A stretch of DNA of 42,985 bases. It comes from Candidatus Vogelbacteria bacterium. Lineage in GTDB: Bacteria > Patescibacteriota > Minisyncoccia > Phycocordibacterales > XYD1-FULL-46-19. The notes beneath the pieces are model-generated. The model searched no databases. It was not told where the DNA came from and saw nothing but the letters and a program-made list of their open reading frames with translations. Where the stretch lies: positions 1 through 42,985 of the forward strand of contig CAIPHT010000014.1 of the NCBI GenBank assembly GCA_903864935.1. Reading direction: 5' to 3'. This document shows, piece after piece, positions 20,135 through 39,541 of the stretch. A program made the translations under genes and the position numbers. The first letter of the stretch is position 1. Each line of letters opens with the position of its first letter.

Positions 20135-20138
20135 ATAT

Positions 20139-21486: not shown

Positions 21487-21732
21487 ATGAGACACATTAT
21501 TTGGCGCAATCGAGCCAGTGCGATTCTAGGTGTTTTTGTCATGCTGATCCCTTTTACTGGTTTCCCAGAGATTATCAGGGATTCTCTCGTCGTCTTATCG
21601 GGGTTCTTAATTGCCCTTTTTGGTTTTTATCATAGCTCGTCTAATTATGCCCTTGTCGAGGTTGAGGAGGCACACCACCACGCCAAAAAAGGAGACTCTA
21701 GAACCAATGAAGAAACATCATCTCTCGGTTAG
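21487..21732 (+). CDS. Small two-TM membrane protein
   Basis: Two hydrophobic segments with LIPFTGFP; ATG 9 nt after TGCTATAAT. Confidence 0.65.
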   Translation: MRHIIWRNRASAILGVFVMLIPFTGFPEIIRDSLVVLSGFLIALFGFYHSSSNYALVEVEEAHHHAKKGDSRTNEETSSLG

Positions 21733-22943: not shown

Positions 22944-24665
22944 ATGGCGGAAACTTTAATAAATTATTTTGGACAAACCGATTTTCGCGGCAAGCGACTT
23001 CGCTTTGGTATTAAAGATGAAGACCGGGCCAAGCACGTTTATATTATCGGTAAGACGGGGATGGGTAAGTCGACCTTGCTTGAGAATATGGTCATCCAAG
23101 ATATTAAGAATGGCGAGGGCGTAGCCTTTGTTGATCCTCACGGTAAGTCGGCTGAATTCTTGCTTGATTTTGTCCCGCCGGAGAGAGTAAAAGATGTTAT
23201 TTATTTTGCCCCCTTTGATCTCGAACATCCTATTTCTTTTAATATTATGGAGGATGTGGGGCAAGACAAGCGCCACTTGGTGGCCAACGGCTTGATGTCC
23301 TCGTTTAAGAAAATTTGGCCGGACGTCTGGTCTAGTCGTATGGAGTATATTCTGAACAATTGCCTCTTGGCCCTTCTTGAATACCCTGAGTCAACCCTGC
23401 TTGGTGTCAATCGTTTGCTCTCAGATAAGGCCTACCGTCAGAAGGTGGTGGATAATATTACCGACCCTTCGGTTCGTTCCTTTTGGGTTGACGAATTTGC
23501 TAAATATAATGAACGTTATATGCAGGAAGCGGGGGATGCGATTAAGAATAAGATTGGTCAATTTACCGCTAATCCTTTGATCCGTAATATTATTGGTCAA
23601 CCTAAGTCCACGATTGATTTGCGCCAAGTCATGGATGATAAGAAAATTTTGATTGTGAACTTGTCTAAGGGTCGCCTGGGAGAACAGAATGCTAACCTCT
23701 TGGGGGGCATTCTGATTACGAAGATTTATTTGGCGGCCATGTCGCGAGCGGGAGCTGAATCTAGCGCCTTATCACGTTTGCCCTATTTCTATCTCTTCGT
23801 TGACGAATTCCAATCTTTTGTAAACGAGTCTTTTGCCGATATTTTGTCTGAGGCCCGCAAGTATAAATTAAGTTTAACAATTGCTCATCAGTATATTGAG
23901 CAGATGCCGGAGGAGGTGAGGAATGCTGTCTTTGGCAACGTGGGTACAACCATTGCTTTTAGAGTTGGCCCCTTTGACGCGGAGGTGCTCGAGACAATCT
24001 TCTTCCCCACTTTCACTAAAGAAGATCTGGTTAATCTTGGTTTTGCTCAAATTTATTTAACCTTATCGATTGATGGTGTTGGCTCGCCACCTTTCTCGGC
24101 CACAACCTTGCCACCAATTCAAGTAGTTGGGGAGTCACTTAAAGAACAGATTATCGCCAATGTTAGACGTGTTTATGCCAAGCCTCGAGAAGTGGTTGAG
24201 AAAGAGGTGGTAGATTGGTATATCCCTGAGCCAAGTGCTGGTTCAAATAAAGGAACAAGCTCGACCTCTGGTGGAGGAGGGGCAAGTGCCCCGGCTCGTG
24301 TCAGTACCGGAGGAGGGGCCTCAGCTCCTTCACGAGCCAAGCCGGTTGAAACCACCACTCCTTTGCCAAGTAAGTCTCAGGTTACTGCACCCCTGCCTCC
24401 CAAACCCCTTACTCCATTAACGCCAAAGGAAGCACCCAAATCTTTTTCCTTAGGAATTTTAAATAATAAACCAAAAGATAATAGAAATAAGAATGAATTA
24501 AAGAATTTTTTGGATGAGATTCTGGCCGGTAAAAAAGAAAAGGCTGTCGTTGCTCCGAAGGTTGAGGTTAAACAAATGCCACAAACCCAAGCTCCCGTGC
24601 AAAATCAAGCTCAGAATAGTATGGAAGCGAAACTAAAAGAAATTCTAAAAGTTGACTCCGAGTAA
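22944..24665 (+). CDS. VirD4/TraD-like (HerA/FtsK superfamily) coupling-type ATPase with a low-complexity C-terminal tail
   Basis: HVYIIGKTGMGKST Walker A, FVDPHG, LFVDEFQ Walker B, LSEARKY, AHQY and GNVGT motifs. Confidence 0.88.
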   Translation: MAETLINYFGQTDFRGKRLRFGIKDEDRAKHVYIIGKTGMGKSTLLENMVIQDIKNGEGVAFVDPHGKSAEFLLDFVPPERVKDVIYFAPFDLEHPISFNIMEDVGQDKRHLVANGLMSSFKKIWPDVWSSRMEYILNNCLLALLEYPESTLLGVNRLLSDKAYRQKVVDNITDPSVRSFWVDEFAKYNERYMQEAGDAIKNKIGQFTANPLIRNIIGQPKSTIDLRQVMDDKKILIVNLSKGRLGEQNANLLGGILITKIYLAAMSRAGAESSALSRLPYFYLFVDEFQSFVNESFADILSEARKYKLSLTIAHQYIEQMPEEVRNAVFGNVGTTIAFRVGPFDAEVLETIFFPTFTKEDLVNLGFAQIYLTLSIDGVGSPPFSATTLPPIQVVGESLKEQIIANVRRVYAKPREVVEKEVVDWYIPEPSAGSNKGTSSTSGGGGASAPARVSTGGGASAPSRAKPVETTTPLPSKSQVTAPLPPKPLTPLTPKEAPKSFSLGILNNKPKDNRNKNELKNFLDEILAGKKEKAVVAPKVEVKQMPQTQAPVQNQAQNSMEAKLKEILKVDSE

Positions 24666-25448
24666 AGAGAGTATTTTTACAATGAAGAGACGGATTTCTC
24701 TTCTGGTTAAAGCCCAATAGAAATTTGGGTAATGTTCTCGATATTTTTTTATCAGCTCTAAATTGAGGGTCATTAATCTTATCCGGTCGGTAAGACTGAT
24801 ATTGCCCGGATGTTTTCTGTAGCCAAGATCAAGCGAAGGCAGATTGTGGAGTTTGTACTTTGCTCCGAGCCGTAGCCACAGGTCATAATCCTCAATACCG
24901 TTTAAATTAAGAGGATAAGCCCCAAGCTTAAGCGCTACCTCCCGACGGTAGAGGGCACTAGAATGAGCAAAAGCATTTTTAGCGAGGAGACTATTCTTAA
25001 TGGCAACAGCGCCTTCAGGATTAACATAGCGCTTAATCTCTTCTCCTTTCTCGTCAATTACGACAACACCTGTTCCAACCAAAGCGTATTCATAATTAAA
25101 ATCTAAGAAGTCGACTTGTTGGCTCAGTTTGTCTTTGGCGAGCCAGACATCGTCGCTATCAAGGACGGCGATATATTCGCCAGTAGATTTTTCTAGGGCG
25201 CGGTTGCGAGTAACACAGATGCCTAAATTTTTCTCATTTTTAAAATATTTAATCCTCTCATCTTTAAGATAGGGGAGTAAGACTTCGTGAGTATTGTCGG
25301 TTGATCCATCATCAACGATAATTAGTTCCCAGTCAGTAAAGTCTTGGGCCAAGATGCTGTCTATGGCCTCAGGTAGATATTGGCCACGATTGTAAGTGGC
25401 CATATTGATACTGACTTTAGGTTTTAATCGCGGGGTAATTTGATCCAT
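24645..25448 (-). CDS. GT2 glycosyltransferase
   Basis: VSINMATYN, ELIIVDDGSTD, LDSDD and EDYDLWLR motifs. Confidence 0.93.
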   Translation of the reverse strand: MDQITPRLKPKVSINMATYNRGQYLPEAIDSILAQDFTDWELIIVDDGSTDNTHEVLLPYLKDERIKYFKNEKNLGICVTRNRALEKSTGEYIAVLDSDDVWLAKDKLSQQVDFLDFNYEYALVGTGVVVIDEKGEEIKRYVNPEGAVAIKNSLLAKNAFAHSSALYRREVALKLGAYPLNLNGIEDYDLWLRLGAKYKLHNLPSLDLGYRKHPGNISLTDRIRLMTLNLELIKKYREHYPNFYWALTRREIRLFIVKILSLLGVNF

Positions 25449-26323
25449 GTTGAGGGAATAATATCGTCAACTTTTATACTACCATTAGTAAACCAGACAT
25501 CTGGGGCAATGACAATTTTGTTTGGATTTTGATTGAGCCAAGCTGGCCACCAGGCAAAACTAGAATTGGCGATAATATTGTGTTGGCATTTACTCATTAG
25601 CATCATTTCTTGATAATCGGTAAGGGGATTTTCTTGTTTTTTCTCTGAGACATAGGTTACCGGATGCCCGTTAAAAGAAATGTTTTCCTTGATCCAGGTG
25701 ATATCTTCGCTAAAGATGAAGAAGGTTGGGTTTTCCACTTTGCTCTCAATATATTTAACTGCTTTTTTGTAGTAATTTTCTGAGCAAATGCCAAAATCTT
25801 TTAAATTTTCTGGCCAGAGATAATCTCCACGCCTAACGGCGAGGGCGATAGAGTTTGTCGAGTTTATCTCGCGCAATAGATCGGGGTGAGTTTGCTCGAG
25901 AGGTATTTTGAGGGAAAAATCTCGTGCCAGAGTCTCTCGGACGTTATCAAAATATTTGTAGCTTTGCCAATAACCATTGAGATAGACATCTTTGTCGCTG
26001 GATATTTTTTCTATTGTTTTTTTGACAAAATTTGTCTCCCAGCCAATATGGTAATTTCTTAGTATCCTAAATTCAATGGCTCGACGGATTTTTCTAAAAA
26101 TACTCTTATCCTTTCGGCCGGGGTCAACTTCCTCTATCTCGTCTAAACTGGCAAAATTTTCAATGATATTGAAAATTCCTAGGCCATATGAGCGGTAAGT
26201 ATCTCGCTCGTAGTCTAGTTTATCTAACTTGAACTCTGTCTTTGTTTCGAGCGATAACCTTCGACCAAACGAATATTGGAACATCTGGTTACCGAGCCCA
26301 CCTTTTAAATTAACGATAATCAT
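25424..26323 (-). CDS. Alpha-1,2-fucosyltransferase-like (GT11)
   Basis: GGLGNQMFQY, GYWQSYKYF, VRRGDY, FSED and IIANSSFAWW motifs. ATG 26323 preferred. Confidence 0.9.
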   Translation of the reverse strand: MIIVNLKGGLGNQMFQYSFGRRLSLETKTEFKLDKLDYERDTYRSYGLGIFNIIENFASLDEIEEVDPGRKDKSIFRKIRRAIEFRILRNYHIGWETNFVKKTIEKISSDKDVYLNGYWQSYKYFDNVRETLARDFSLKIPLEQTHPDLLREINSTNSIALAVRRGDYLWPENLKDFGICSENYYKKAVKYIESKVENPTFFIFSEDITWIKENISFNGHPVTYVSEKKQENPLTDYQEMMLMSKCQHNIIANSSFAWWPAWLNQNPNKIVIAPDVWFTNGSIKVDDIIPSTWIKLPRD

Positions 26324-26333
26324 TTCTTTGACA

Positions 26334-27065
26334 TTATTTTTTAATAAACCAGAAACAGCCACAAGCATAAGAGCTTTTGTTCACTATTTCTTCCTTCTCG
26401 TTAACCACCGGGTCTCCCGATTCTGGGATAAAATAAAATTCTGCAAGTTCTAGGTCAGAAAAAAGCTCTTTAATCATTCGATAAGAATAAATACGATGAG
26501 CATTGAATTCTATTTTAGGTTGGCCAATCGGGACAACAAAGAGGAGGGAGCCACCTTTAGCCAAGACTCTCTTTAGTTCTTTGATTGCTTTAAGATCGCC
26601 GTCTGGGTCGAGGGGGTCGCCATAGCGCCCAAGACCGATATGCTCTATTGTGTGCATGCAAGATAAGGATTCAATACTCTCGTCAGGAAAGGGCAGCTTT
26701 GTTAGGTCGGCGGAGTAAGATTCAAGATTTGAGAGGGTTAACTTGGCTGGCCGGTAATCATAAAATTTTACCGGTAGCGAAGCGGAGAGAGTTGAGCTAA
26801 AGTAGAGGCTCGAAGAAATGTCGGTGTGGAAGTTTGGTTTGAGCTCAAGAACTTTTCTCACGGCCCAGGCTACATGGTAGACATAGTGACGATCGAAATT
26901 TGTGGTAATTGTTTTGTCTTTGATTTGGGGGTAAAAATCTTTTACTTTAATTTCAAATCTCTTCTTATTGTCCGCTTTTTTATATACCAAATAATCTCTT
27001 AGAACAAAAGGAGTTAGAGTTATCCGAATAGTTTTTTTGATGATTTTTTTTAGTTTGTTGCTCAT
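26334..27065 (-). CDS. DUF268-like methyltransferase-fold protein
   Basis: FDRHYVYH, DISS and SCMHTIEHIGLGRYGDPLDPDGD motifs. Confidence 0.8.
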   Translation of the reverse strand: MSNKLKKIIKKTIRITLTPFVLRDYLVYKKADNKKRFEIKVKDFYPQIKDKTITTNFDRHYVYHVAWAVRKVLELKPNFHTDISSSLYFSSTLSASLPVKFYDYRPAKLTLSNLESYSADLTKLPFPDESIESLSCMHTIEHIGLGRYGDPLDPDGDLKAIKELKRVLAKGGSLLFVVPIGQPKIEFNAHRIYSYRMIKELFSDLELAEFYFIPESGDPVVNEKEEIVNKSSYACGCFWFIKK

Positions 27066-28210
27066 ATTATCCTTAGTAAGTTGTCGATAGCTTCTTTTGC
27101 ATCCTCCACGCTTATTCCCTTTATACAGGGGGCCGGTTCGTCTGCTTTTAGATTTTTACTGCATAGCCAATTATCATTCAAGCACTTCATCTCTTTGTTG
27201 TAAATGATTAAGTTTTTTGTTAAATCCCCGTAAGGGAAAAATCGTTTAAAATGACCTCCTCCCATAAGACATATTGCTGGGGTTCCGGCGGCGGCCGCTA
27301 AGTGGAGAATCCCAGTATCGCTTCCAAAATAAAACCTAGATTTTGAAAGAAGGCCGAGCAATGATCCAATGCTAGTTTGACCGGCTAAATTTATAAAAGA
27401 GTCTTTGCCCGCGAGCTGTTTGGTAATGCTAGATATTACTGAAAGGTCGTCCTTCGTTCCGCAGATCACCGGGGTAATCTCTTTTTGTTTGAGATAATTG
27501 ATAACCTCGACATACTTGTTAGTGGGCCAAACTTTATAAGCTTGTCCCGCCCCGGGGAAGATTACACAAAATCTTTTTTTTGTTAGATCGTTCTCCTTAA
27601 TTATTGCTTCGGCTTGGTCCAAGTCATCTCGCTCAGGTTTGATTGTAGGGAAAGATATTTCGTTAATTGATGCCCCGAGAGATTTAATAAAAAAGATATT
27701 CCTTTCGAACTCGGTAGTGGCATTTTCGGGCACTTTTATAAGTTTGGTGTAGACCTTTTCTGAATGTTTTTCTTTTTTAGTATAAGAATAGTCTCCGTCA
27801 AAACCGATTTTTGTCTTTGCTCGACTAGCTGAGACAATTGCATCACCGATTACTTCTGGCGAAAATACGGGGTAGATTACTGTTTCGTACCCGTGTTTTA
27901 CGATATCTAGGATAAAACGTCGGCGATAAAGGAAATTCTTTGAGAACCTCTTGTTATCTAGAATGACAAATTTATCTATACCTTGAATCTTGGGGATTAA
28001 TTCTTGGGCAATCTTACTGACAACCAAGCTTATCTCGTGGTTAGGGAAGACCTCTCGGTAGTGCTTTAAGACAGGTAAGAAAATAATGTAATCGCCCAAC
28101 CCGTCTTTGCGAAAAATTAGCAGTCTCTTGATATCTGATTTTTCTTGTCTTGCAAAACCGGACTCAAAGTTAATCCAGCTATCAATAACGTTTTTTAAGA
28201 TTGATCTCAT
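27062..28210 (-). CDS. GT9 (heptosyltransferase-like) glycosyltransferase
   Basis: RKDGLGDYI, FPGAG..YKVWP and GSDTGILHLAAAAGTP motifs. Confidence 0.88.
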   Translation of the reverse strand: MRSILKNVIDSWINFESGFARQEKSDIKRLLIFRKDGLGDYIIFLPVLKHYREVFPNHEISLVVSKIAQELIPKIQGIDKFVILDNKRFSKNFLYRRRFILDIVKHGYETVIYPVFSPEVIGDAIVSASRAKTKIGFDGDYSYTKKEKHSEKVYTKLIKVPENATTEFERNIFFIKSLGASINEISFPTIKPERDDLDQAEAIIKENDLTKKRFCVIFPGAGQAYKVWPTNKYVEVINYLKQKEITPVICGTKDDLSVISSITKQLAGKDSFINLAGQTSIGSLLGLLSKSRFYFGSDTGILHLAAAAGTPAICLMGGGHFKRFFPYGDLTKNLIIYNKEMKCLNDNWLCSKNLKADEPAPCIKGISVEDAKEAIDNLLRII

Positions 28211-28211
28211 C

Positions 28212-28931
28212 TTACTTGGCCAAAACTTTTAATTCAAATGAGTATACTTCTGGGCTTGGTTTGTGGTATGAGCTGGCGGTAACTTTATTCCAGAATTTTT
28301 TATTGAGCTTGTAGATTTTGAGGAAGATTTTTTTAATTATTCTGGCTATCGGGGAATGACGGGCCAGGTCAGCTGGGTCAAGAAATTCTATTGTGTCGAA
28401 TCCCGCTGATCTTAGGACATAGATTAGACTGCCAGAAGTAAAGATTGTCGTATGAGTAAAATCTTCAAACATCCAGTATGACCCCGTGTTTGATTGAGCG
28501 TTTGGTGTGGTTAGATATAGTGCGCCCGTTGCTGTTAAAGTGTTTTTGATTTCTGTTAGGGTTTTAATGATTTCTTCTTTGTTAATATGTTCAATGACGT
28601 GAGTCATAATGATGAAGTCGTATTTTTTAGTATTCTTGCTAAAGAAGTCTTCAAGGGACGATATCTGTTCAACGTTTAGATTAATATTGTGGCAATGCAA
28701 GATGGCTTCATCTGAAATATCAATTCCTGACAGATTTGTGTAACCGAGAGACCTTAGATTATCTAGAACATGACCAAAACCACAACCAACATCGAGGATT
28801 GCCGCCCCTTTGTCTTCTGGCAAAATTGACAGCAGGTAGGGGGGTATCTTGTATCTCATCATAGATTCAGCTCCGATATTTCTATTAGCGAAGTATTTTT
28901 TATTTTGTATGCTACGGTTTAGGTTGTTCAT
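28212..28931 (-). CDS. Class I SAM-dependent methyltransferase
   Basis: ILDVGCGFG, GIDIS, HVIEH, TTPN and DFTH motifs. Confidence 0.88.
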   Translation of the reverse strand: MNNLNRSIQNKKYFANRNIGAESMMRYKIPPYLLSILPEDKGAAILDVGCGFGHVLDNLRSLGYTNLSGIDISDEAILHCHNINLNVEQISSLEDFFSKNTKKYDFIIMTHVIEHINKEEIIKTLTEIKNTLTATGALYLTTPNAQSNTGSYWMFEDFTHTTIFTSGSLIYVLRSAGFDTIEFLDPADLARHSPIARIIKKIFLKIYKLNKKFWNKVTASSYHKPSPEVYSFELKVLAK

Positions 28932-29698
28932 ATTTTTGAGGCTAAATATTTGCTATCTGAGCTCGTTTTGCTTATTAATATTTTTTTTATAATGAGATCC
29001 AGCTGAAGCCGGGAAAGCAATAGTATTAATGTGAATAACCAGTTAGGGATTTTTTTCTCAGTTAGTAAGTGTATATTTTTGCCATCTGAGCAGAGGTTTT
29101 TATTGAATTTTTTTGCTAAAAATTTTAGTGTCTCTGGAGAATAAAAAGAAATATGTTGACCGTGTTCGATTCCGTAATACTCCCAATTATCGTCAGGTAC
29201 TTCTTTTGGAAGAAGTCGAGTTGAAAAAAGAATATTTGAAGAAATTTTAAACATATCACCAATCTCTTCGAGGGGTGACAGCAAATGTTCAAAACACTCA
29301 AAGCAAGAAATGGCCTCTATATTTTCTCTGTCCTCGTAATCAAAGCCTTGGGCAAATAAGTTTGGAGTATATTTGTCATGATGTCGGAAATCTAGACCGT
29401 AATCACGCATTAGTCTCGTTAACACGCCGTAGCCTCCCGCGTAGTCTAAGTAGGTGTTTTTTCTCCCAAAAAGAGAAGTGAACAGAAGCAGTGTTTTTTT
29501 GGATAAATAGACGTTTCTTGATATGTAGCCCGTGTCACTGACATTTATCGGCTTCTCGTAAGCTTCTTCGAGCCAGGTTGGATTCTCTATAAACATGAAA
29601 CTGCAATCGCTACACTTCTCATAGCGGGCCTCATATTTACCCCTAATAACTGATTCTTTGACTATTTTTGCTTCTTTTCCACAGATTTTACATTTCAT
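28928..29698 (-). CDS. Class I SAM-dependent methyltransferase with an N-terminal CxxC-x-CxxC zinc-ribbon-like motif
   Basis: CKIC...CSDC, LDYAGGYG, FECFEH and GQHISFY motifs. Confidence 0.85.
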   Translation of the reverse strand: MKCKICGKEAKIVKESVIRGKYEARYEKCSDCSFMFIENPTWLEEAYEKPINVSDTGYISRNVYLSKKTLLLFTSLFGRKNTYLDYAGGYGVLTRLMRDYGLDFRHHDKYTPNLFAQGFDYEDRENIEAISCFECFEHLLSPLEEIGDMFKISSNILFSTRLLPKEVPDDNWEYYGIEHGQHISFYSPETLKFLAKKFNKNLCSDGKNIHLLTEKKIPNWLFTLILLLSRLQLDLIIKKILISKTSSDSKYLASKI

Positions 29699-30618
29699 AT
29701 TCCTAATATTTTTCTAATCCTCAGTCTTATCTTATCAGATGTGCTTACTAAGTAAACTTTTTTAAAGAGCCGAGAATCTGCCTCTTTGTTCACAATTGTT
29801 TCTATGGGGTGAGTTATTTTACTTAAGGGACTAGATTTTTGTCCCAATTTGCTACTTTTTTCGTTTGTGTGAGTAGAATTGTTTCCGAATCCTATGTTTT
29901 CGACCAAGTTAATATTGGGAGTTATCGCTATCCCTGACGCATTCATTATTGAATATGCCCATTGGGCATCCCAGGTATCTATTTTTTTATCTCTAACGTG
30001 CAAGAAGAGGGAATTTAAAAAGCGAGACATTCTCCTATCTTCAAATAATGCGTAAGCTTTATTGGAGGTGACGAGTTTTTCAAGACCTCTCATTTCGATG
30101 TCGTATTTCTTCCAGGCCCTTCTCCATGTCGCCCAGCCCCAAATGTGTGGGAAATGTGAAAAGTAGTAACTTCCTTGGCCAAATTGTTCCCCGAACTGGA
30201 GATTTAAACCACTTATGTGCATTATCCTCCCCTCATCTCTGTATCTCTCAAGTAACTCCTGGCAGAAAAGAAAGAAACTTTGGTTGGGTAAACAGTCATC
30301 TTCTAGAATTATACCCTCTTCAACATTTTGGAAAAACCAACTAATTGCCGAACTGACGCTATCTTTACAGCCAAGGTTTTTTTCTCTGAATAAGGTTTTA
30401 GTTTCGCAAGGCCAGTCTATCTCAGTGGCGACCTCTCTGGCCTCTTGGCAGAGTTTACCTTCTTCTGGTTTTGAGCTCCTTGGGCCATCCGCGGCGATAA
30501 AGAGCCTGGCTGGTTTTATTGATCTTATTGCTTCAAAAACGCGACGAGTTGTCTCGGGTCGGTTAAAAATAATAAAAAGAATTGGCACTTGATAAGATTG
30601 TGGGGATTCGATGTTCAT
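29695..30618 (-). CDS. Nucleotide-diphospho-sugar transferase (HlpA-like GT-A)
   Basis: PILFIIFNRP, AADGPR, NLGC, ILEDDC, WGWATWRRAW, WDAQW and NIGFG motifs. Confidence 0.85.
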   Translation of the reverse strand: MNIESPQSYQVPILFIIFNRPETTRRVFEAIRSIKPARLFIAADGPRSSKPEEGKLCQEAREVATEIDWPCETKTLFREKNLGCKDSVSSAISWFFQNVEEGIILEDDCLPNQSFFLFCQELLERYRDEGRIMHISGLNLQFGEQFGQGSYYFSHFPHIWGWATWRRAWKKYDIEMRGLEKLVTSNKAYALFEDRRMSRFLNSLFLHVRDKKIDTWDAQWAYSIMNASGIAITPNINLVENIGFGNNSTHTNEKSSKLGQKSSPLSKITHPIETIVNKEADSRLFKKVYLVSTSDKIRLRIRKILGI

Positions 30619-32546: not shown

Positions 32547-32547
32547 T

Positions 32548-33186
32548 TTATCTTGCGGGTTCGATAACCATCATATCCCGAATAATTTTGAAGGAAAAGC
32601 GCTCTTGTTTGGCCACTAGCTCGCGGATCTCCTTAATCGTTGGGTAGTCGTGAGTGCCATCAAAACAACGAGCATCATCAATCATAATAACGTCTTTTTT
32701 ATTTTTTCTGGCAAATATGGTTAGCAGTTCTTTGACGATGGGTGTCTCTATTGCCGCTTTGGCGGTGCCCTCGCCTGAATAGTGGGCATCAAGCCAGAAG
32801 AAGACGGGTTCAGTAATCTGAGGCAATAACTCAATGAGTTTTTCTCCACTGTCACCGTGAATGATGGTTATGTTTTTGTCATCGGCAAACATTTTTTTAG
32901 CATTCTCGTAAAGTTCATCAAAGAGTTCAATTGAGATAATTTTAGAGAATGTTCGACGAACGGCTTTAACCATTAGGCCCCCGGCCGTGCCTGTCTCAAT
33001 AAAGGTTTTTAAGCCATGCTTTTTGCCTAAGCGGCGAATGATTCTGTGTTTGATTGGATCGGGGGCTGGATCTGGACGGCCCGCTAAGTACCATTTAATA
33101 TTGATGTTTGTTTGTCTCACTTTTCTGACAATAGTTTGAGGAATTATCGCCTTTAAAAAGGCTCTTATTTTTTTATACATATTCAC
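32548..33186 (-). CDS. Methyltransferase-fold protein
   Basis: FIETGT..G, SIEL, HGDS, FWLDAHYSG and IDDAR motifs. Confidence 0.72.
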   Translation of the reverse strand: MNMYKKIRAFLKAIIPQTIVRKVRQTNINIKWYLAGRPDPAPDPIKHRIIRRLGKKHGLKTFIETGTAGGLMVKAVRRTFSKIISIELFDELYENAKKMFADDKNITIIHGDSGEKLIELLPQITEPVFFWLDAHYSGEGTAKAAIETPIVKELLTIFARKNKKDVIMIDDARCFDGTHDYPTIKEIRELVAKQERFSFKIIRDMMVIEPAR

Positions 33187-33194
33187 AATACTAC

Positions 33195-34055
33195 TTAAAA
33201 ATTTTTAATCTGGCAAACTATTTTTTGGGCCAGTTCTTGAGGACTTATCTCTCGGATATTGATGCGGGGAATAATAAAATTATCTCTTGTCTTTGTGGCG
33301 AGAAATCCAGTATTAGTATAGGCAAAATCAAAGCCGGATTCTTTTACTATCCCTTTCGTTGTTTTATTAAAATCATAAGTTCCTCCAAAGGGATAGGCAA
33401 AAGTTTTTATTTCTTTTCCCGTTATCTCTTCTAATTTATTTTTGCTGTTTAATATTTCTTTTTTTTGCTCTTCTTGTTTAAGATTGGCTAGATTTGGGTG
33501 TGTCTCAGTGTGAGCTCCAATGTCAATAAGAGGATGCTTGGCCAGGGTCCTTATCTCCTCTTCAGTTAGGAAAAAGGCTCGGTCATCTTCTGGGTACTTC
33601 TTGTCCCAATCAAAATTAGCTTTTTCTCCAATATGACCAGTGGTGATAAAAATCGTCGCTGGTAGATTATATTTCTCAAGCAAAGGGAGCGCCTTTGTTA
33701 AATTGTCTTGGTAACCGTCGTCAAAGGTAATGGCCATCTCGTTTCCCTTAATTTTGCCGTTTGCTAACCTCTGACTTAATTCTCTAAGTGAGATAATGTC
33801 ATAATTTTTTTTGAGAAACACAAGATGTCTTTCAAAGTGCTCTGGGCTGACACACAACATCAGAGGATCTTGGGTTGGTGTAGCAATGCGATGATAAAGT
33901 AAGATTGGCGCTGTGCGGTAGAATTTTTTAGACAATAAATTAGTCACATTCACCTTTAATTCTAAAAGCAAAAAGAATAAGTGATGAGCTTGTTTGTAAA
34001 AGCCAAGAGCCTGGAGCGGCCTTTTAAAATATTTTTTTAAAAAATCTTTTATCAT
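33195..34055 (-). CDS. Polysaccharide deacetylase (CE4/NodB-like)
   Basis: ILLYHRI, ITFDDGY, ATIFI, GAHTETHP, FAYPFG and IPRI motifs. Confidence 0.9.
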   Translation of the reverse strand: MIKDFLKKYFKRPLQALGFYKQAHHLFFLLLELKVNVTNLLSKKFYRTAPILLYHRIATPTQDPLMLCVSPEHFERHLVFLKKNYDIISLRELSQRLANGKIKGNEMAITFDDGYQDNLTKALPLLEKYNLPATIFITTGHIGEKANFDWDKKYPEDDRAFFLTEEEIRTLAKHPLIDIGAHTETHPNLANLKQEEQKKEILNSKNKLEEITGKEIKTFAYPFGGTYDFNKTTKGIVKESGFDFAYTNTGFLATKTRDNFIIPRINIREISPQELAQKIVCQIKNF

Positions 34056-34753
34056 TTCTGAGCTTTAACTGTAATAATTAAAGGGAAGTTAGGGTCATTA
34101 TCTTTTAGAGTTTTTGTCGAGGCGTCTTCTTGGGCCAGACCAGCGTAGAAATATAGACCAGAACGCACGTTGCCAAAAGATTTAATTTCTGTTTGTTCTG
34201 GTTTAAATTTTTTGCTAAATAAATATGAAGCTGAAGCGACCGTAAAGCGCCAAAAATCGCCACCAACTCCGGAGATTGGGTCAACTCGGCTTAGTGAGGG
34301 GAGGGTTGCAAGAATTACACCGCCTGGTTTAAGTACTCGATAACATTCTGATATCACGGCTGGGACGTCGTCGATGAATTGTAGGACTTGAGTCAGGATG
34401 AGGCAGTCATAGGTATTATCAGCGACACTCGACAAATTTCTTAAATCATCAATAATTGTTGCGTTTTTGTTGGAACTGTCGATATCTAAGATGCCACTTT
34501 TGATGACATTTGTTCCACCATATTTGATTGTGTAATCATTGTTTAGTAACTCAAGACAAACCCCTTTGATGAGCCCCTTGTTTCCTTCGAGAAAATTTTC
34601 GATATAAAAGCGGTCAAGAGGTGCCCCGCGGTCGAAGCCATGATAAGCGCTAAGTGGCTCAGTGCGATGGCTAAGAAAGTATAAAAACTTAGGCTTTAAT
34701 ATCCGCCGGATAAATTTCTTGGTGCTATCAGAAAGTGGTATTTTATTGTTCAT
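34052..34753 (-). CDS. Class I SAM-dependent methyltransferase
   Basis: GFDRGAPLDRFYIE, DCLILTQVLQFI, RVLKPGG and DFWRFT motifs. Confidence 0.82.
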   Translation of the reverse strand: MNNKIPLSDSTKKFIRRILKPKFLYFLSHRTEPLSAYHGFDRGAPLDRFYIENFLEGNKGLIKGVCLELLNNDYTIKYGGTNVIKSGILDIDSSNKNATIIDDLRNLSSVADNTYDCLILTQVLQFIDDVPAVISECYRVLKPGGVILATLPSLSRVDPISGVGGDFWRFTVASASYLFSKKFKPEQTEIKSFGNVRSGLYFYAGLAQEDASTKTLKDNDPNFPLIITVKAQK

Positions 34754-35525
34754 TATTTTTTATAAATAAAGCATCATTTTCCCCAATTTGTTCAAGGAGT
34801 TTATAGCCTTGGGGAATTAAGAAGTCAGAAATTTTTTGAAGCTTAGCATTATTTTGTATTTCTACTAATATATAAGCAGGTGAATTCTTGGAGAAATCTA
34901 AACCTTGAAGAACCTCCAGTTCGTAACCTTCAACATCGGCGATGAATAAGTCAATTGCCACTTTCCCTTTGGCTAAGGCTTGCTCGTCAATGATAGATTG
35001 AATTGTCTTGGCTGGGACAATAATTTCACGGCATTTTATATCTTGGCAGGATTCACTGGCCTTTATCCAGCTAGAGCTATCTTCAATGCTACCCTTAACA
35101 AAAGACATGGCACTGCAGTCAATAAACGAAACAGTTTTTTCTGGATAAGCAAAAGAGACACAAGCGCTCTGGACAACCTCCGACCTTCGGCGATTTTTTT
35201 GACAAATTTTACTTAGAGGAGGAAGGGGCTCGGCAATAATTCCTCTCCAGCCTTTAAATTTTTCGAGATAATAACTGGGGTCATTGCTATAGCCTTCGTG
35301 CCCGCCACATTGAACGAAGAAGCCGTTATTTTTATTTACATATTTTAATAAAGCTTCGTGGCCGGAATATGGGTGAGAATATTTCTCTGAACCAAAAAAT
35401 TCATACAAATCTCTTTGGTAGGGGACGAGCTTGCTCTTTAAAAAGGGGATAATTTTGTTGGCATTCCCCTTGGGGTTTGAGATAAGCTTTCTTATTTTTT
35501 GGATATTTGTCTCGTGGTAGGCCAT
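34743..35525 (-). CDS. FkbM-family methyltransferase
   Basis: GFFVQCGGHEG..N, WRGIIAEP, DVEGYELEVLQG and YILVE motifs. Confidence 0.85.
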   Translation of the reverse strand: MAYHETNIQKIRKLISNPKGNANKIIPFLKSKLVPYQRDLYEFFGSEKYSHPYSGHEALLKYVNKNNGFFVQCGGHEGYSNDPSYYLEKFKGWRGIIAEPLPPLSKICQKNRRRSEVVQSACVSFAYPEKTVSFIDCSAMSFVKGSIEDSSSWIKASESCQDIKCREIIVPAKTIQSIIDEQALAKGKVAIDLFIADVEGYELEVLQGLDFSKNSPAYILVEIQNNAKLQKISDFLIPQGYKLLEQIGENDALFIKNNEQ

Positions 35526-35527
35526 AT

Positions 35528-36502
35528 TTATTTTGAAATAATTTTTTTAACTAGTTTTGTTATTTTTAATTTTACTAGGATCTTTATAATAAAATGAATT
35601 ACTCGCTCGCTTTTTCTTGTACTTCCTTTGCCCACGTTGCGGTAAAATTCTCTTAGCAATTTTGTTGCTTCTAGATTCTCTTCTATATTATCTTCAAAAA
35701 TTATCTCTCTTTCTTTCTCAAGATTTAACTCAAAAGGGTTTTTTCCAGATAATTTGTTTAGAATTGTAAAATGAGTCCCGTTAAACAAGCCATTGTTCTT
35801 GATTAGGGGATAAGGGGAATTAACGGCTAAACCATTATTTATAATAATTGCGATATTCCAACAAATGTCCCAAGGAATGGGTTTGGCCTTTAAGCTACCC
35901 AGACACTTAAAAACTCCACCCATCTCAATCTTATCTTTTTGTTCGGGCGAAAGAAGAGAGAGGCCTTCTTCTTCATTTTGGAACCAGGTGAATTTGTCCC
36001 AACGATTTCTCCAGGTACCCCAACCCCCACCGGTATTTTCTGAATAAGTGGTAAAGAAGGTCTTGTTGTTGCTAGGGGCTTTGATAAAAGTAAAGGTCGC
36101 GATATGCATCACTTTGTCTTTGTATTCGTAAAAATCGAGAGCATCGTTCATAAAGTTGAGGAAATTAGGGGCGGACACACCGTCGTCCTCTAAGACAATA
36201 ATTTTACCAAACTTGTTTATTATTTCGGTTACACCATCGGTGATGTTCTTCTCGATATAAAAATTTTCTGGACGCTCAATAATATTAAAAGATTTGAAGC
36301 CTGTTACTGTTTTGAGATATTGGCGGACCTCAGCCACCTTTCTTTCATTGGCGGGATTTTTAAGGATATTTGGTCCATCAGAAAAAACAAAAACATCGGT
36401 GTCTTTGGCCAAATAATTTTTCTGCAAAGCCTCAATAACCCCTCGAGTATTAGCTAGTCGATTGTAGACGAAGATGGCAACCGGGGCTAAATTCTTATCC
36501 AT
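35528..36502 (-). CDS. GT-A glycosyltransferase (sugar transferase)
   Basis: APVAIFVYNR, FSDGP, IVLEDD, WGTWRNRW and WDICW motifs. Confidence 0.85.
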   Translation of the reverse strand: MDKNLAPVAIFVYNRLANTRGVIEALQKNYLAKDTDVFVFSDGPNILKNPANERKVAEVRQYLKTVTGFKSFNIIERPENFYIEKNITDGVTEIINKFGKIIVLEDDGVSAPNFLNFMNDALDFYEYKDKVMHIATFTFIKAPSNNKTFFTTYSENTGGGWGTWRNRWDKFTWFQNEEEGLSLLSPEQKDKIEMGGVFKCLGSLKAKPIPWDICWNIAIIINNGLAVNSPYPLIKNNGLFNGTHFTILNKLSGKNPFELNLEKEREIIFEDNIEENLEATKLLREFYRNVGKGSTRKSERVIHFIIKILVKLKITKLVKKIISK

Positions 36503-36511
36503 ATTAATGAA

Positions 36512-37318
36512 TTATTGTATTTTTTTATCTTTAGCAGCTAATTCTCTTTCAAATCTACAAGGGGTATTGAATAATACTGCTTTGCAACTGAAGACACGCT
36601 TTTCTGGTGGTGGCGGTGTTAGGTAATTACCACCGTACATAAGAGATAGGTATTCGTGTGCTTTGTTTGGGGCTGGGTATAATTTGCCCTCAAATTCGAT
36701 CTCCTTTAAGGGGTAAATAAGAGATTGGGGGATGGTGTAGAAATACCAATTATCTTCGACCGTCTGACCAACCTTGTCACTTTTGATAGGGGATAAGACT
36801 AGCCAGATAAATTTACATAGATAATAAATAATGTAATTTAGAAAGATTTTTTTCTTTAAAACGTAGATGTTCCCATAGGAACGGCCAGTGATGTATAGGA
36901 GCCCCTTCCTTAACAAGTCTGGCATTTTGGGATAATTAGCCGAGGGAAAGATATCCATATAGATGCCTTGATGGTGATTTTCTTCGTCTGTCTCAGCTGG
37001 ATGAATAAAAGTAGAATTGCGATTACATAGTTTTGTAAAATTTTGATGATAGTTTTTGTCTGTTTTGGGTGTCTGTAAAAAGATATTTTTAGGTAATTCT
37101 TTTGGTGCAATTTCTAAAAACTTTTTATAGTCAGTCATTGGCATTGAGACATCAACGTCGTCGTCCCAAGGGATAAATCCTTTTTGCCTGACAGCTCCCA
37201 AAAAGGCTCCAAAATCTAGCCAGTAGACTAATTTGTGCTTGTCGCAAAGAGCCTTAAAATCGTCCAGAAGACGTATTTGAATCTCTCTCAATTTGGTCAT
37301 GTCTTGCTCCGTTACCAT
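36512..37318 (-). CDS. LicD-family phosphotransferase
   Basis: GAFLGAVRQKGFIPWDDDVDV, YMDIFP, FEG...PAP and YLSLMYG motifs. ATG 37318 preferred. Confidence 0.9.
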   Translation of the reverse strand: MVTEQDMTKLREIQIRLLDDFKALCDKHKLVYWLDFGAFLGAVRQKGFIPWDDDVDVSMPMTDYKKFLEIAPKELPKNIFLQTPKTDKNYHQNFTKLCNRNSTFIHPAETDEENHHQGIYMDIFPSANYPKMPDLLRKGLLYITGRSYGNIYVLKKKIFLNYIIYYLCKFIWLVLSPIKSDKVGQTVEDNWYFYTIPQSLIYPLKEIEFEGKLYPAPNKAHEYLSLMYGGNYLTPPPPEKRVFSCKAVLFNTPCRFERELAAKDKKIQ

Positions 37319-37322
37319 TTTC

Positions 37323-37958
37323 TTATTTTTTTGTCGCAATTACTCTAATAAACTTTTGGTTGGCTTGGTTGGCCTTGTTTGATGGAGCAAACCCTGATTT
37401 TTCTTCGGCCATAACTATCTCGAAGCCGATTGATTTTAATTTTGCAACAAGCTTGTCAATATCTATAAAGCGACGATAATGACCCTCGTAAATATAAGAA
37501 TCTGTTTCTCCTTTTACTGGTTCACCTAATTTATAGAATTCATTCTTTTTACCCCTTGCTTCTATTAATATTTTGCCACCCTCTTTTAAATTTTTATAAG
37601 CCCACTTAATTACCTCATCCTCTTCTTTTTCTGAGATTGAGTGTAGTGTGAAACGGGAATAAACATGGTCAAATGTTTCTAATTTTTTTAGTTTTGTAAA
37701 ATCCGCAGAAATAAAATTTAAGGTTGAGAGATCGTTTTTTTCTATTAAAATTTTAATTTCTTCTTCACACTGGTCTATGGCGACAACATTTATCCCGTGA
37801 CTGGCGAAAAAAATACTATCACGGCCGTTTCCGCAACCAAGTTCAATAAGGGAGTGCTCACTTCTTAGATGGTTGTCTAGCACAAACTGAGCAAAAGGCG
37901 ATGACTCCAGCGGTGCCCCTTGGTGTTTGTAGTATTTTTCCCAATATTCTTTATCCAT
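37323..37958 (-). CDS. Class I SAM-dependent methyltransferase
   Basis: YWEKYY, LIELGCGNGRDS, YSRFTLHSI and GHYRRF motifs. Confidence 0.88.
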   Translation of the reverse strand: MDKEYWEKYYKHQGAPLESSPFAQFVLDNHLRSEHSLIELGCGNGRDSIFFASHGINVVAIDQCEEEIKILIEKNDLSTLNFISADFTKLKKLETFDHVYSRFTLHSISEKEEDEVIKWAYKNLKEGGKILIEARGKKNEFYKLGEPVKGETDSYIYEGHYRRFIDIDKLVAKLKSIGFEIVMAEEKSGFAPSNKANQANQKFIRVIATKK

Positions 37959-37987
37959 GTTTATATATTATTATCAGGTAATGGTAA

Positions 37988-39292
37988 TTATGCAAAGATT
38001 TTCATTATACCATCTCTCGACTTTTTGAAGAAAAAGAGACTCAAGACAACTGACATATAGGATAACATTGTTCCCCAAGCAGATCCCTCTGAGCCAAAAA
38101 GGGGAATCAAGATAAGGTTAAGAACAACATTTGTTGTCGCACCAATGATACTGGTATATAAAAAGATACGGGTGAAGTTCTCGGCGATAAAATAATGTTG
38201 AACTAAAACCACGAGGGTTATAGCGATACTCGTCCAAAGATAAATTCGAAGGATGGGCGTCGCCCCGATAAAAGCTTGGCCGAAGACAAGTTTAATGATC
38301 AAGGGAGCAAAGATAAAAAGAGGCAGGGCAATAATAGCAGTAATCCCAATTGTTAAACCGGCAAGAGCTCGGAATCTCTTGGCGTAGAGAGGAAAATTTG
38401 TTTTTTTGGCATTAACAATTGCGGGGAAGACCGAGCCAATAATCATCCCGGGTAAGAAGGCCCAGATTTGGGTCAATTTAACAGCGACACCATAGATACC
38501 AACCGTGGCTGAATCGATTAAATGGAGAAGTAGAACTTGGTCTATCTTGGCATAAACATAACCAGAAAAACCAGCCAAAATTAAGGGCCAAGAATCTCGA
38601 AGAAGCAATTTAAAGGTATCTAATTTAAATTTCCACGAAGAGGGCTTGTTGTGGAAACGGGCAATATAAACATAGATAGACCAAAGGGCCGAGATAAAAC
38701 CTTCGATAAAAATTATTAAAGCAAAATAAATTAAACCTCGATTCAAAAAGATGACGAGGATCTTAAGAGCGGGGATAAAGAAGGCCAAGAAGATTGAAAT
38801 TTGTGAGCTATACTTAGCTTTAACCTGAGCATTAAAAAGGACACCGACTGTACCAATGGGGTTGATAAGGAAATTCAAGGCACAAATACCGACAAGAGTC
38901 GTCAGGAGTAAGTTGTCACCCAAAAGATGGGAGATAGTAACGGCGATGATAAAAGCGATAAGACCAAAAAATAGTTTAGCAAAAATAGCTGTTCCTAATA
39001 ATTCATTTTCTTTCTCTGGATAGCTTATTAAGTCACGATAGAGAATCTGGTCAATGCCGAGTGAAGAGAAGATTGAGATAATTGCCACGAAACTTTGGGC
39101 ATAATCGAGCTTCCCTAAATTTTCTGGACCGAGATAGCGGGCGACCATGGCCACGGTGAGGAAGGAAGTGAAGAAAGAGGTAATTCGGGCCGCAAACAAC
39201 CAGCCGGTATTTTTAAAATACTTTTGAAAGCCGGCGTGTTGCCACCACTGCTTAGTGAATGTTTGGGTCTCTTTGTAAAATCTCTTGAACAT
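37988..39292 (-). CDS. wzx: Wzx flippase
   Basis: KNTGWL, ARYLGPENLG, SLGID, KIDQVLL, GIYGVA, LIPLFG and GSAW motifs in a polytopic membrane protein. Confidence 0.9.
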   Translation of the reverse strand: MFKRFYKETQTFTKQWWQHAGFQKYFKNTGWLFAARITSFFTSFLTVAMVARYLGPENLGKLDYAQSFVAIISIFSSLGIDQILYRDLISYPEKENELLGTAIFAKLFFGLIAFIIAVTISHLLGDNLLLTTLVGICALNFLINPIGTVGVLFNAQVKAKYSSQISIFLAFFIPALKILVIFLNRGLIYFALIIFIEGFISALWSIYVYIARFHNKPSSWKFKLDTFKLLLRDSWPLILAGFSGYVYAKIDQVLLLHLIDSATVGIYGVAVKLTQIWAFLPGMIIGSVFPAIVNAKKTNFPLYAKRFRALAGLTIGITAIIALPLFIFAPLIIKLVFGQAFIGATPILRIYLWTSIAITLVVLVQHYFIAENFTRIFLYTSIIGATTNVVLNLILIPLFGSEGSAWGTMLSYMSVVLSLFFFKKSRDGIMKIFA

Positions 39293-39295
39293 GTT

Positions 39296-39541
39296 TTACC
39301 AATTAAGAATTTTATCGGCGACCTTCTTCTTTGTTTTTAGGTATTTGTCGATTGCTTTTTCTTCAAGCTCTGGTGAGACTAAGCGGAGGATTTCTTTTCC
39401 CATAATGCGATATTGTCCGCCAATTTTGTTGGCCCGGATGGCTCCATTTTTGAGTAAGCGCTTAATTGTGCTTTCACTAATGCGGAGCACCTTTTGGGTC
39501 TCAGTGGTTGTATAGACGGCGAGAGGTTTAATTTCTTCCAT
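39296..39541 (-). CDS. Small helix-turn-helix DNA-binding protein (excisionase/HTH_17-like)
   Basis: YTTTETQKVLRISESTIKRLLKNGAIRANKIGGQYRI motif. Confidence 0.85.
   Translation of the reverse strand: MEEIKPLAVYTTTETQKVLRISESTIKRLLKNGAIRANKIGGQYRIMGKEILRLVSPELEEKAIDKYLKTKKKVADKILNW

Follow-up and report, generated by a model that had tools for sequence, protein, structure and literature searches.

Wzx/Wzy gene clusters primed by WbaP/WcaJ-type enzymes, such as those for the Salmonella O-antigen and E. coli colanic acid, combine a MOP-family flippase, a Wzy_C protein, a polyprenyl-phosphate glycosylphosphotransferase (PGT) and soluble glycosyltransferases (GTs); they have a low GC content and occupy a fixed site at which gene content is swapped. 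All of these traits are shared by the locus described here, a run of 16 minus-strand genes at positions 24645-39292 of contig CAIPHT010000014.1 from a Candidatus Vogelbacteria bacterium ("the window" hereafter being the whole stretch analyzed, 42,985 nucleotides). Unlike those clusters, half of its genes encode methyltransferases (MTs), genes for nucleotide-sugar synthesis are absent from the locus and from the genome, the initiating enzyme lies 19 kb away, and the host is a bacterium of the candidate phyla radiation (CPR) without lipopolysaccharide (LPS). A Wzz chain-length regulator was not identified, no search aimed at one having been made. The best-studied glycan clusters carry one to three MTs. 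Methylation of bacterial glycans has been described as rarely reported, in a study of the Tannerella forsythia protein O-glycosylation cluster (PMC6120980). That cluster, which encodes MtfJ, MtfO and MtfY, likewise is polycistronic and contains Wzx, GTs and several MTs dependent on S-adenosylmethionine (SAM). Its product is a complex, fucose-containing, methylated surface glycan of solved structure, whereas our operon is known from its genes alone; and it has three MTs in 27 kb together with its own WecB and WecC, as against eight in 14.6 kb here. O-methylation of glycans by SAM-dependent MTs encoded beside GTs is also found in the mycobacterial methylglucose lipopolysaccharides (MGLP) and methylmannose polysaccharides (MMP) (PMC9883506). 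These, however, are intracellular homopolymers with most residues O-methylated, through repeated action of one or two MTs, whereas the present locus brings together eight MT families, six GT domains and a flippase.

We numbered the operon genes g01 to g16 by rising coordinate, so that g16 is transcribed first and g01 last. All are intact open reading frames (ORFs) with zero internal stops, spaced by -35 to +29 bp and overlapping at 9 of the 15 junctions, a packing that fits a single operon with translational coupling. An earlier note on this DNA had counted 16 genes here, eight of them with MT-like domains. Both figures were borne out by the ORF check and by hidden Markov model (HMM) and structural evidence: the MT genes are g03, g05, g06, g08, g09, g11, g12 and g15, documented by Pfam in six cases, by TIGR04371 for g08 and by a family profile, AlphaFold and Foldseek for g09. 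The GT2, GT11, GT9, CE4, LicD and Wzx labels given in that note all correspond to matches above the Pfam cut-offs. These assignments support identification of the locus as a surface-glycan assembly operon of the Wzx/Wzy type, that is, a known kind of locus, common in CPR bacteria, in an unusually MT-dense variant.

The nearest homologues come from sources named "Candidatus Paceibacterota", which places the organism in the CPR (Patescibacteria). The genome (825 kb in 20 contigs, rated 98.8% complete, with about 813 genes) has a GC content of 44.6%. The cluster stands at 38.3% and the secDF region at about 45-49%, so that the impression of a DNA richer in AT than secDF was correct. A second low-GC stretch is found on contig C3 (21.2 kb, 38.4% GC overall), with MT-like genes at 7028-7828 and 19711-20361. 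When one common detection method is used for all MT-like genes, 16 are detectable among the approximately 813 genes and eight of these fall in the 16-gene operon, for a hypergeometric P of about 3e-11 that is to be read as crude, neighboring genes being non-independent. An unusual genome-wide total of MTs was ruled out: PF13489-type matches number 8, within the span of 1-14 seen across 100 genomes from this order. In an all-against-all BLAST of the eight MTs, g05 and g11 formed the sole pair, a weak one (22% identity), and the operon MTs have no copies elsewhere in the genome. Together these results rule out tandem duplication as the source of the eight.

The density of MT genes was compared by a single measure applied to every locus, namely the number of MT-like genes in the best 15 kb as found by jackhmmer with 14 MT seeds. 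For comparison we used 56 loci, each 15 kb or longer and drawn from many phyla, whose anchor was not an MT but a member of the GT family to which g07 and g13 belong; because the seeds come from the source lineage, counts in other phyla are lower bounds. The window has 8 MT-like genes in its best 15 kb, with 13 genes from the first MT to the last. For the anchored loci the median is 2 and the highest count 6: eight have none, 13 have one, 11 have two, 12 have three, six have four, five have five and one has six. High counts were also obtained for genome G051, which belongs to a different family within the order (8 of 13 genes, verified with Pfam), for the same-genus genome G108 (7 of 11), for G080 (6) and for G088 and G007 (5 each). 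The source window thus stands at the far upper end of a continuous range of densities, being neither typical nor unique. The earlier note had raised the prospect that such density might be usual in CPR loci, and the anchored set speaks otherwise. That it might be peculiar to the source genome is ruled out by G051 and G108; MT-rich loci are a lineage trait. The G051 locus (L048, contig C4, 5990-18002) packs its 8 MT-like genes, among 13, into 12 kb that also contain GT4, GT2 and an AsnB-type amidotransferase.

The eight MTs are varied. Two belong to the Methyltransf_23 group: g05 (28212-28931; PF13489, 2.9e-21), with a canonical LDVGCGFG motif, and g06 (28928-29698; PF13489, 6.3e-13), which carries an N-terminal CxxC...CxxC zinc ribbon and the motif LDYAGGYG. 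The first is unmatched in G108, in a related metagenomic contig (L001) and in a relative's locus (L002), all three of which have g06 homologues 57-63% identical; in G108 and L001 an FkbM gene stands between the g07-like and g06-like genes. The fused MT that had been noted at 30618 proved to be real: g08 (30618-32546, 642 aa) joins a GT2 domain at residues 4-172 (PF00535, 1.7e-37) to a NanM-type sugar O-MT, TIGR04371 ("putative sugar O-methyltransferase"), at residues 470-582 (3e-13; 49.9 bits against a cut-off of 44), and this C-terminal part carries a VEVGGGYG motif. The full fusion occurs in one of eight same-genus genomes (G108, 80% identity), and the GT2 half alone in another, G106. The product of g09 (32548-33186, 212 aa) has zero Pfam matches and its single-sequence search of the PDB was uninformative. 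Its family of 6,962 representative clusters gave a profile whose PDB matches are all class I MTs, and its AlphaFold 2 model (pLDDT, the model's confidence score, 93) resembles cation-dependent O-MTs at a Foldseek E value of 6e-10, which makes it a COMT/CCoAOMT-like, cation-dependent-type O-MT. The residues invariant in this family (E64, G66, T67, G70, E87, G111, S113, W131, D133 and H135, with D112 in at least 90% of members) fall at the positions of motif I, the acidic beta2 residue and motif III. The gene g12 (34743-35525) encodes an FkbM-family MT (PF05050, 5.1e-13; TIGR01444, 42.6 bits against 37.7). Lastly, g15 (37323-37958; PF13649, Methyltransf_25, 5.6e-14) overlaps the LicD gene g14 by 17 bp and is a class I MT whose best PDB matches are the plant phosphoethanolamine N-MTs (PMTs) PMT2 (5wp5, 2.9e-12) and PMT1 (5wp4, 1e-10); the next unrelated MT follows at 4e-7 and the Plasmodium PMTs at about 1e-4.

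A glycine-rich motif I (E/DxGxGxG) is present in g05, g06, g08, g09, g12 and g15 and missing from the remaining two, g03 and g11. In g03 (26334-27065), a DUF268-family class I MT (PF03269, 5.2e-18; PF08241, 6.6e-7), the SAM-loop position reads D82-I-S-S-S86, and this DISSS motif is invariant in the family, for which more than 7,800 homologues were found. A structure prediction was needed here because the single-sequence PDB search was uninformative and the family profile gave nothing significant in the PDB; the AlphaFold 2 model (pLDDT 87) has SAM-dependent MTs as all of its top 50 Foldseek matches, the sugar O-MT AtmM among them. In g11 (34052-34753; PF08241, Methyltransf_11 type, 2.3e-10), the motif I position reads CLELLNNDYT. 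This substitute is invariant or at least 90% conserved in its family, whose profile matches in the PDB are all MTs. The earlier note had pointed to a lack of SAM-binding residues in several MTs as a sign against its reading and, to the letter, g03 and g11 display it. Their substitute motifs, however, are conserved across the respective families, which together with the MT fold modeled for g03 marks them as family traits rather than decay. The notion that g03 and g11 are decayed pseudo-enzymes was ruled out on the same basis, the odd motif I being invariant or more than 90% conserved across 35-120 homologues. With conserved motifs, intact ORFs and orthologues 57-85% identical in a congener, all eight MT-like genes look functional.

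The other genes of the operon supply the remaining elements of a glycan assembly line. The last gene, g01 (24645-25448, 267 aa), encodes a GT2 enzyme (PF00535, 1.1e-35; EpsE/TuaG-like by NCBIfam) with a DSD motif at position 97 and an 86% identical counterpart in G108. It is preceded by g02 (25424-26368, 314 aa), of the GT11 or alpha-1,2-fucosyltransferase family (PF01531, 6.3e-30; 104.9 bits against a cut-off of 23.9). The GT9 enzyme g04 (27062-28210, 382 aa; PF01075, 8.2e-25), a GT-B protein of the heptosyltransferase family, resembles RfaQ and heptosyltransferases I-III in NCBIfam at scores under the equivalog cut-offs. It is just 41-42% identical to its counterparts in G108 and L001, the allele thus having been replaced. 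Two paralogues, g07 (29695-30618) and g13 (35528-36502, following LicD), are 25% identical to each other (E 5e-17). The earlier note had called them GT-A enzymes. The proteins have zero significant Pfam matches individually, and a single-sequence PDB search with g07 was uninformative; their family profile matched only POMGnT1 and GnT-I in the PDB, weakly (E 0.07-0.8), and PF03071 was matched by 2 of 8 family members, at 0.001. We note that an E106-D107-D108 motif is invariant in the family (EDD at position 105 in g13). A GnT-I/GT13-like nature is weakly supported. This family, which has neither a Pfam nor an NCBIfam model, counts at least 570 relatives across phyla in a species-level genome collection, including proteins from Chitinophaga, Mucilaginibacter, cyanobacteria, Saccharibacteria and Methylotuvimicrobium.

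Between g09 and g11 lies g10 (33195-34055), a CE4 poly- or oligosaccharide N-deacetylase (PF01522, 4.2e-30) with catalytic and metal-binding motifs 1 (TFDD; TFDDG110) and 2 (H-S/T-x-x-H; HTETH182) intact and zero transmembrane (TM)-like segments. The LicD-family phosphotransferase g14 (36512-37339; PF04991, 7.6e-39, 134.6 bits against a cut-off of 22.6) has a WDDD58 motif, and its top NCBIfam match is the cholinephosphotransferase Mf1 (6e-21, under the cut-off of that model). LicD enzymes use a CDP-linked donor to attach a phospho-alcohol or phospho-base. The first gene to be transcribed, g16 (37988-39292), encodes the Wzx/MOP flippase (PF01943, 1.5e-28) with about 11 TM-like segments, and is 91% identical in G108. 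A crude hydropathy scan detected no TM-like segments in the MTs, the GTs or the CE4 enzyme. These proteins are probably cytoplasmic, in which case tailoring would precede the flipping of the unit.

Several genes outside the operon are likely to act with it. Upstream of Wzx lies g17 (39296-39541, minus strand), which encodes a small DNA-binding protein of 81 aa with an excisionase/MerR-type helix-turn-helix domain (HTH_17, PF12728, 1.5e-10). It separates Wzx from g18 and is missing in G108, where Wzx and the g18 homologue stand 9 bp apart; g17 may have been inserted recently or may serve as a local regulator. The earlier statement that the cluster holds no nucleotide-sugar synthesis genes is correct within 24645-39292, but a candidate activating enzyme, g18, is found on the same strand at 39594-40811. 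It fuses a cytidylyl- or adenylyltransferase domain of the HxGH type (PF01467, 1.9e-13) to a GHMP kinase (PF08544), with intact HSGH20, RSTTG133, SGMATS197 and GAGGG375 motifs. Its top NCBIfam matches are RfaE domain II, a heptose-1-phosphate adenylyltransferase (5e-16), and the fucokinase part of Fkp (7.6e-12); in the PDB, its N-terminal half is closest to ethanolamine-phosphate cytidylyltransferase (ECT; 3elb, 2.2e-11), and Fkp was matched as well. In the Fkp of Bacteroides, too, a GHMP kinase and a nucleotidyltransferase are joined in one protein, and g18 resides in a genome with GT11 but no de novo GDP-fucose route. Unlike in Fkp, however, the nucleotidyltransferase half of g18 is N-terminal and has an HxGH cytidylyltransferase-like fold (PF01467) rather than the NTP_transferase fold (PF00483/PF07959); g18 is an analogue of Fkp-type kinase/pyrophosphorylases and not a member of the group. 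The genome has one other PF01467 gene, on contig C15, which appears to be of the NadD type from its sequence alone, leaving g18 as the only candidate for activating a sugar-1-phosphate or a phospho-alcohol. The g18 family, uncharacterized, numbers at least about 8,000 proteins in Paceibacterota and Anaerolineae. Anaerolineae homologues adjoin GH5/GHL10 glycosidases, an aldo-keto reductase and an iron-containing alcohol dehydrogenase, and a constant linkage of g18 to LicD was ruled out by such unrelated contexts.

To the right, on the plus strand, is a membrane protein with a Wzy_C domain (40877-42961; PF04932, 1.2e-22), about 12 TM-like segments and a C-terminal tetratricopeptide repeat (TPR), 78% identical in G108 and 62% in G106. 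It could be a polymerase, a ligase or an O-oligosaccharyltransferase, roles that are indistinguishable at this level. The left border is formed by a plus-strand TrwB/VirD4/TraD-like P-loop ATPase without TM segments (22944-24665; PF10412, 1.2e-8), which follows a DUF4015 putative glycosyl hydrolase (21611-22915, plus strand). Farther away, 19 kb from the operon, is a WbaP/EPS-type PGT (4628-5959, plus strand; PF02397, 2.4e-56; TIGR03025, 1.1e-85), with a divergent GT4 gene as its neighbor (3438-4580, minus strand; PF00534, 3.1e-33). Since its PF02397 match is single in the whole genome, this PGT is likely to be the initiating enzyme for the glycan of the operon. The GT domains number six in the operon and eight with the upstream GT4 and PGT. 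Counting MraY on contig C6, the genome has at least nine glycosyltransferase-type domains, besides Mur ligases and FtsW.

The locus behaves as a variable island at a fixed site. The same flanks, with murD, a Mur ligase, DUF4015 and the TrwB-like ATPase (72-84% identical) on the left and the Wzy_C-TPR gene on the right, enclose differing loci in the same-genus genomes G108, G106 and G105 and in contig L001. The G108 locus is mostly syntenic with ours, with identities between 41% (GT9) and 91% (Wzx); it is devoid of g05, g15 and g17 and has gained the FkbM gene and a B12/radical-SAM gene. Where g15 would be, beside LicD, the G108 locus (L025, contig C2 of that genome, 2319-6018, minus strand) has a phosphonate module made up of a PEP mutase-cytidylyltransferase fusion (469 aa), a phosphonopyruvate decarboxylase-like, thiamine pyrophosphate-dependent enzyme (377 aa) and an iron-containing alcohol dehydrogenase (384 aa), which suggests that this strain may make a phosphonate-decorated glycan. 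The interior in G106 is largely different, with five MTs and a B12/radical-SAM enzyme. Genes for B12-binding radical SAM proteins were seen in the loci of three relatives (L025, 12795-14603; L001, 4445-6226; L026, 14258-15691), on the opposite strand in G108 and L001; the source window has none. The equivalent loci in congeners are 4-6 GC points under their flanks. A fixed site with swapped content is the behavior of O-antigen and capsule loci. We view the locus as a low-GC island remodeled by cassette exchange among close relatives and across phyla; its swapping between congeners fits diversifying selection, without showing the cause.

Some of the cassettes recur as pairs whose partners hint at the substrates. 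DUF268 was named from Caenorhabditis and is without assigned function. A first look found GT11 near DUF268 in 2 of 9 phylum-level loci, an impression that was reversed by a larger pooled set: GT11 is present in 12 of 18 loci that bear DUF268 as opposed to 9 of 95 that do not (odds ratio 19, P 6.5e-7). In eight of those 12 loci DUF268 is directly 5' of GT11 on the same strand, often overlapping it, and such adjacent pairs occur in Saccharibacteria, Paceibacterota, Taylorbacteria, Bacteroidetes and Acidobacteria. In the relative's locus L002, a DUF268-FkbM-GT11 group adjoins manC, gmd and fcl. A DUF268 domain was also found in a 542-aa fusion protein directly beside a GT11 gene (L043, contig C1 of G026, 2989-4617). 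The pairing and the manC/gmd/fcl neighbors indicate methylation of fucose or of a fucosylated acceptor, which makes g03 a candidate O-MT for the fucosylated glycan. The proposal that DUF268 proteins in general O-methylate the fucose, or the fucosylated acceptor, made by GT11 is a tentative one, to which we give somewhat less than an even chance. A glycomics study of C. elegans places DUF268 genes within clusters of GT genes and notes that the fucose-modifying MT is unidentified (PMC7614267). If the proposal is true, g02 and g03 would offer a simple two-gene bacterial system in which to identify the family that makes methyl-fucose epitopes.

A g11-family MT lies directly 5' of CE4 in 7 of 7 loci, including one from Oxalobacter. 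By analogy with NodB and NodS, this pairing suggests de-N-acetylation followed by N-methylation. As in NodB, the CE4 enzyme lacks a TM-like segment, has intact motifs, is coupled to a class I MT and lies beside GT2; g11, a candidate N-methyltransferase for the amine freed by CE4, is, by HMM, not a member of the NodS family, and it is the invariable gene pairing that suggests N-methylation. The pair belongs to a larger block, (PMT-like MT)-LicD-GnT-I-like GT-(FkbM)-MT11-CE4-GT2, that is conserved in order in two other contigs and, minus the first MT, in an Oxalobacter genome (L074). In this betaproteobacterium (Oxalobacter sp., GCA_030269625.1, JAJDFZ010000005.1), the genes run LicD-GT-A-MT11-CE4-GT2...MT23...GT11 in the order of the CPR operon, which is evidence of cassette exchange across phyla. 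The cassette adjoins manC, gmd and fcl and an ATP-binding cassette transporter, has a g11 homologue of about 55-59% identity and is missing DUF268. In L074-L076 the position of g13 is occupied by a protein of about 322 aa; in L075 and L076 an MT of about 208 aa with a Pfam profile like that of g15 (TehB/Methyltransf_23/11/25) adjoins LicD.

These arrangements inspire analogies with the lic loci of pneumococci and Haemophilus and with the PMT route of plants, nematodes and Plasmodium (5wp5, 5wp4, 4mwz), which share LicD, a cytidylyltransferase of the ECT/CCT/TagD fold and a PMT-like MT with the present system. Unlike in those systems, the kinase fused to the cytidylyltransferase here is of the GHMP type rather than of the choline-kinase fold, and a congener swaps the MT for a phosphonate module. 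The matches of g15 to PMTs, of g14 to Mf1 and of g18 to ECT, along with the phosphonate module of G108, support the existence of a "LicD slot" with interchangeable cassettes for phospho-type head groups. In our operon the head group may be phosphocholine-like. This is the weakest part of the model, because the GHMP kinase is unlike known choline and ethanolamine kinases.

The suggestion that donors are made outside the cluster was supported and has to be extended to SAM itself. HMM searches of the 98.8% complete genome returned no PF01370 (the epimerase/dehydratase family of gmd, fcl, galE and rmlB types), no PF00483 or PF12804 (NTP_transferase and NTP_transf_3, including GlmU types) and no SAM synthetase, either bacterial (PF02773) or archaeal (PF01941). 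The same sugar-nucleotide families were found in 14 of 14 control genomes, bacterial MetK in 10 of 10 bacteria and archaeal MetK in 4 of 4 archaea. Without PF01370 and PF00483, the genome contains no gmd/fcl source of GDP-L-fucose for GT11, g18 being a possible salvage route. Bacterial MetK is missing from 86 of 101 genomes of the same order, yet all of them carry several SAM-dependent MTs, which implies SAM import or an unknown synthetase. In the absence of a recognizable pathway for SAM or nucleotide sugars, donors must be imported or salvaged. A literature search on methylation of CPR glycans or on SAM auxotrophy turned up no directly relevant work.

One could envision the following pathway. 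The WbaP-type enzyme would prime polyprenyl phosphate, on which the soluble GTs (two GT2 domains, GT11, GT9, the two GnT-I-like enzymes and possibly GT4) would assemble a short heterosaccharide, probably with fucose. Before export, the chain would be tailored by enzymes whose genes are interleaved, and probably translationally coupled, with those of the GTs: sugar O-methylation could be the task of DUF268 (g03), the NanM-type domain of g08, g09, FkbM (g12), g05 and g06. The CE4 enzyme would take off an N-acetyl group and g11 would probably methylate the freed amine, following the logic of NodB and NodS. LicD would then attach a phospho head group, probably methylated by g15 and CDP-activated by g18, to give a phosphocholine-like substituent. 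Wzx would flip the finished unit and the Wzy_C-TPR protein would either polymerize it or ligate it to an acceptor. As a further layer, every part of the coat would derive from imported SAM and from imported or salvaged activated sugars. We consider it likely, with due reservations, that the operon is the variable core of a Wzx/Wzy surface-glycan locus of a Paceibacteria-type CPR bacterium, with g18, the Wzy_C-TPR protein and the distant initiating transferase as partners. Domain identities, intact motifs, the packing of the operon, synteny, the conservation of cassettes and the missing donor-pathway families are direct observations; each substrate, the sequence of reactions, how many methyl groups are added and the placement of the product at the surface are what we infer.

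A number of points weigh against this reconstruction. The substrates of MTs cannot be read from sequence, and the three MTs of T. forsythia add two methyl groups (PMC6120980). The binding of SAM by g03 and g11, both without the canonical glycine-rich loop, is assumed from fold and family conservation; the presumed initiating transferase is 19 kb away; the absence of donor pathways is drawn from HMM searches of a 20-contig draft; and a cytoplasmic location of the MTs, GTs and CE4 enzyme is derived from a crude hydropathy scan. We know of no GHMP kinase that phosphorylates ethanolamine or choline. The kinase half of g18 is itself sugar-kinase-like (Fkp/HddA), and its Anaerolineae homologues lie in non-LicD contexts, all of which weakens the case for a phosphocholine-like head group.

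The precedent of T. forsythia lends itself to a different account of the MT genes, in which methyl groups are fewer than genes because several MTs act on precursors or head groups, or are alternative or redundant, the genes having accreted as cassettes at a recombination hot spot. On this view the mature repeat unit would bear just a few methyl groups and the product would not be exceptionally methylated. The likeness of g15 to phospho-base N-MTs and the variation of MT cassettes between congeners, with G108 devoid of g05 and g15 but endowed with an extra FkbM and G106 carrying a different set, speak for it. Yet the eight MTs represent eight different families and not duplicates; all are intact and tightly coupled to adjacent GTs; identities of 57-85% to their G108 orthologues indicate purifying selection; and MT domains (eight) are about equal in number to GT domains (six in the operon, eight with GT4 and PGT). 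We think this account unlikely as a whole. To infer from eight MTs that the glycan is heavily O-methylated nevertheless goes further than the data allow; two or three of the enzymes, at the least, are probably not sugar O-MTs. The picture of a heavily methylated, deacetylated and phospho-substituted glycan drawn in the earlier note is partly supported, and needs amending where g15 looks like a phospho-base enzyme and g11 like a partner of CE4. It is also worth considering that the product could be a defined oligosaccharide, moved en bloc to S-layer or pilus proteins, with the Wzy_C-TPR protein serving as an O-oligosaccharyltransferase of the PglL/WsfB type. The Wzy_C domain is common to ligases and O-oligosaccharyltransferases, the protein has a C-terminal TPR and CPR bacteria generally lack LPS; but no acceptor protein or sequon was identified and the role of a Wzy_C domain is undecidable from its sequence, so that we regard en bloc transfer as rather doubtful.

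With respect to g18, its kinship to RfaE domain II and to Fkp, in NCBIfam and for the latter also in the PDB, would suit a sugar-salvage enzyme, an anomeric kinase joined to an NDP-sugar pyrophosphorylase, that feeds NDP-fucose to GT11 or an ADP-sugar to GT9 instead of providing the LicD donor. A genome with GT11 and without gmd/fcl, and the glycosidases beside the Anaerolineae homologues, are in keeping with such a role. Conversely, LicD needs a CDP-linked donor, and the genome offers no plausible cytidylyltransferase other than g18; the best PDB match of its N-terminal half is ECT, and the matches to Fkp in the PDB span only the short region of GHMP motif 3. Salvage is quite possible, if short of an even chance. 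That the cluster could be a decaying or mis-binned island, acquired horizontally and without current function, is brought to mind by a GC content 6 points under that of the genome, by the TraD/VirD4-like gene on the flank and by the small excisionase-type gene inside. We disfavor this idea and find it very improbable: the ORFs are all intact and the catalytic motifs kept, the contig also bears 16S rRNA, murD, secDF and ftsW, the same flanks and locus recur in G108, G106, G105 and L001, and the equivalent loci of G108 and G106 are low in GC too, as is usual for glycan loci.

Three pairings, each open to testing and found again in other phyla, emerge from the analysis: DUF268 with GT11, possibly for methyl-fucose; Methyltransf_11 with CE4, possibly for an N-methyl amino sugar; and a PMT-like MT with LicD, the MT in the latter being exchangeable with a phosphonate module. 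The DUF268-GT11 pair provides a link to an open question of nematode glycobiology. Attention is drawn, moreover, to three large families without a Pfam model or an assigned function, namely the g09 O-MTs, the g07/g13 GTs and the g18 fusion. Out of roughly 800 genes, this bacterium devotes 16 to one glycan operon, eight with MT domains, and it lacks recognizable synthesis of SAM or of nucleotide sugars. The locus clearly illustrates how CPR bacteria living as episymbionts may use borrowed activated donors to assemble a surface that is private and chemically masked.

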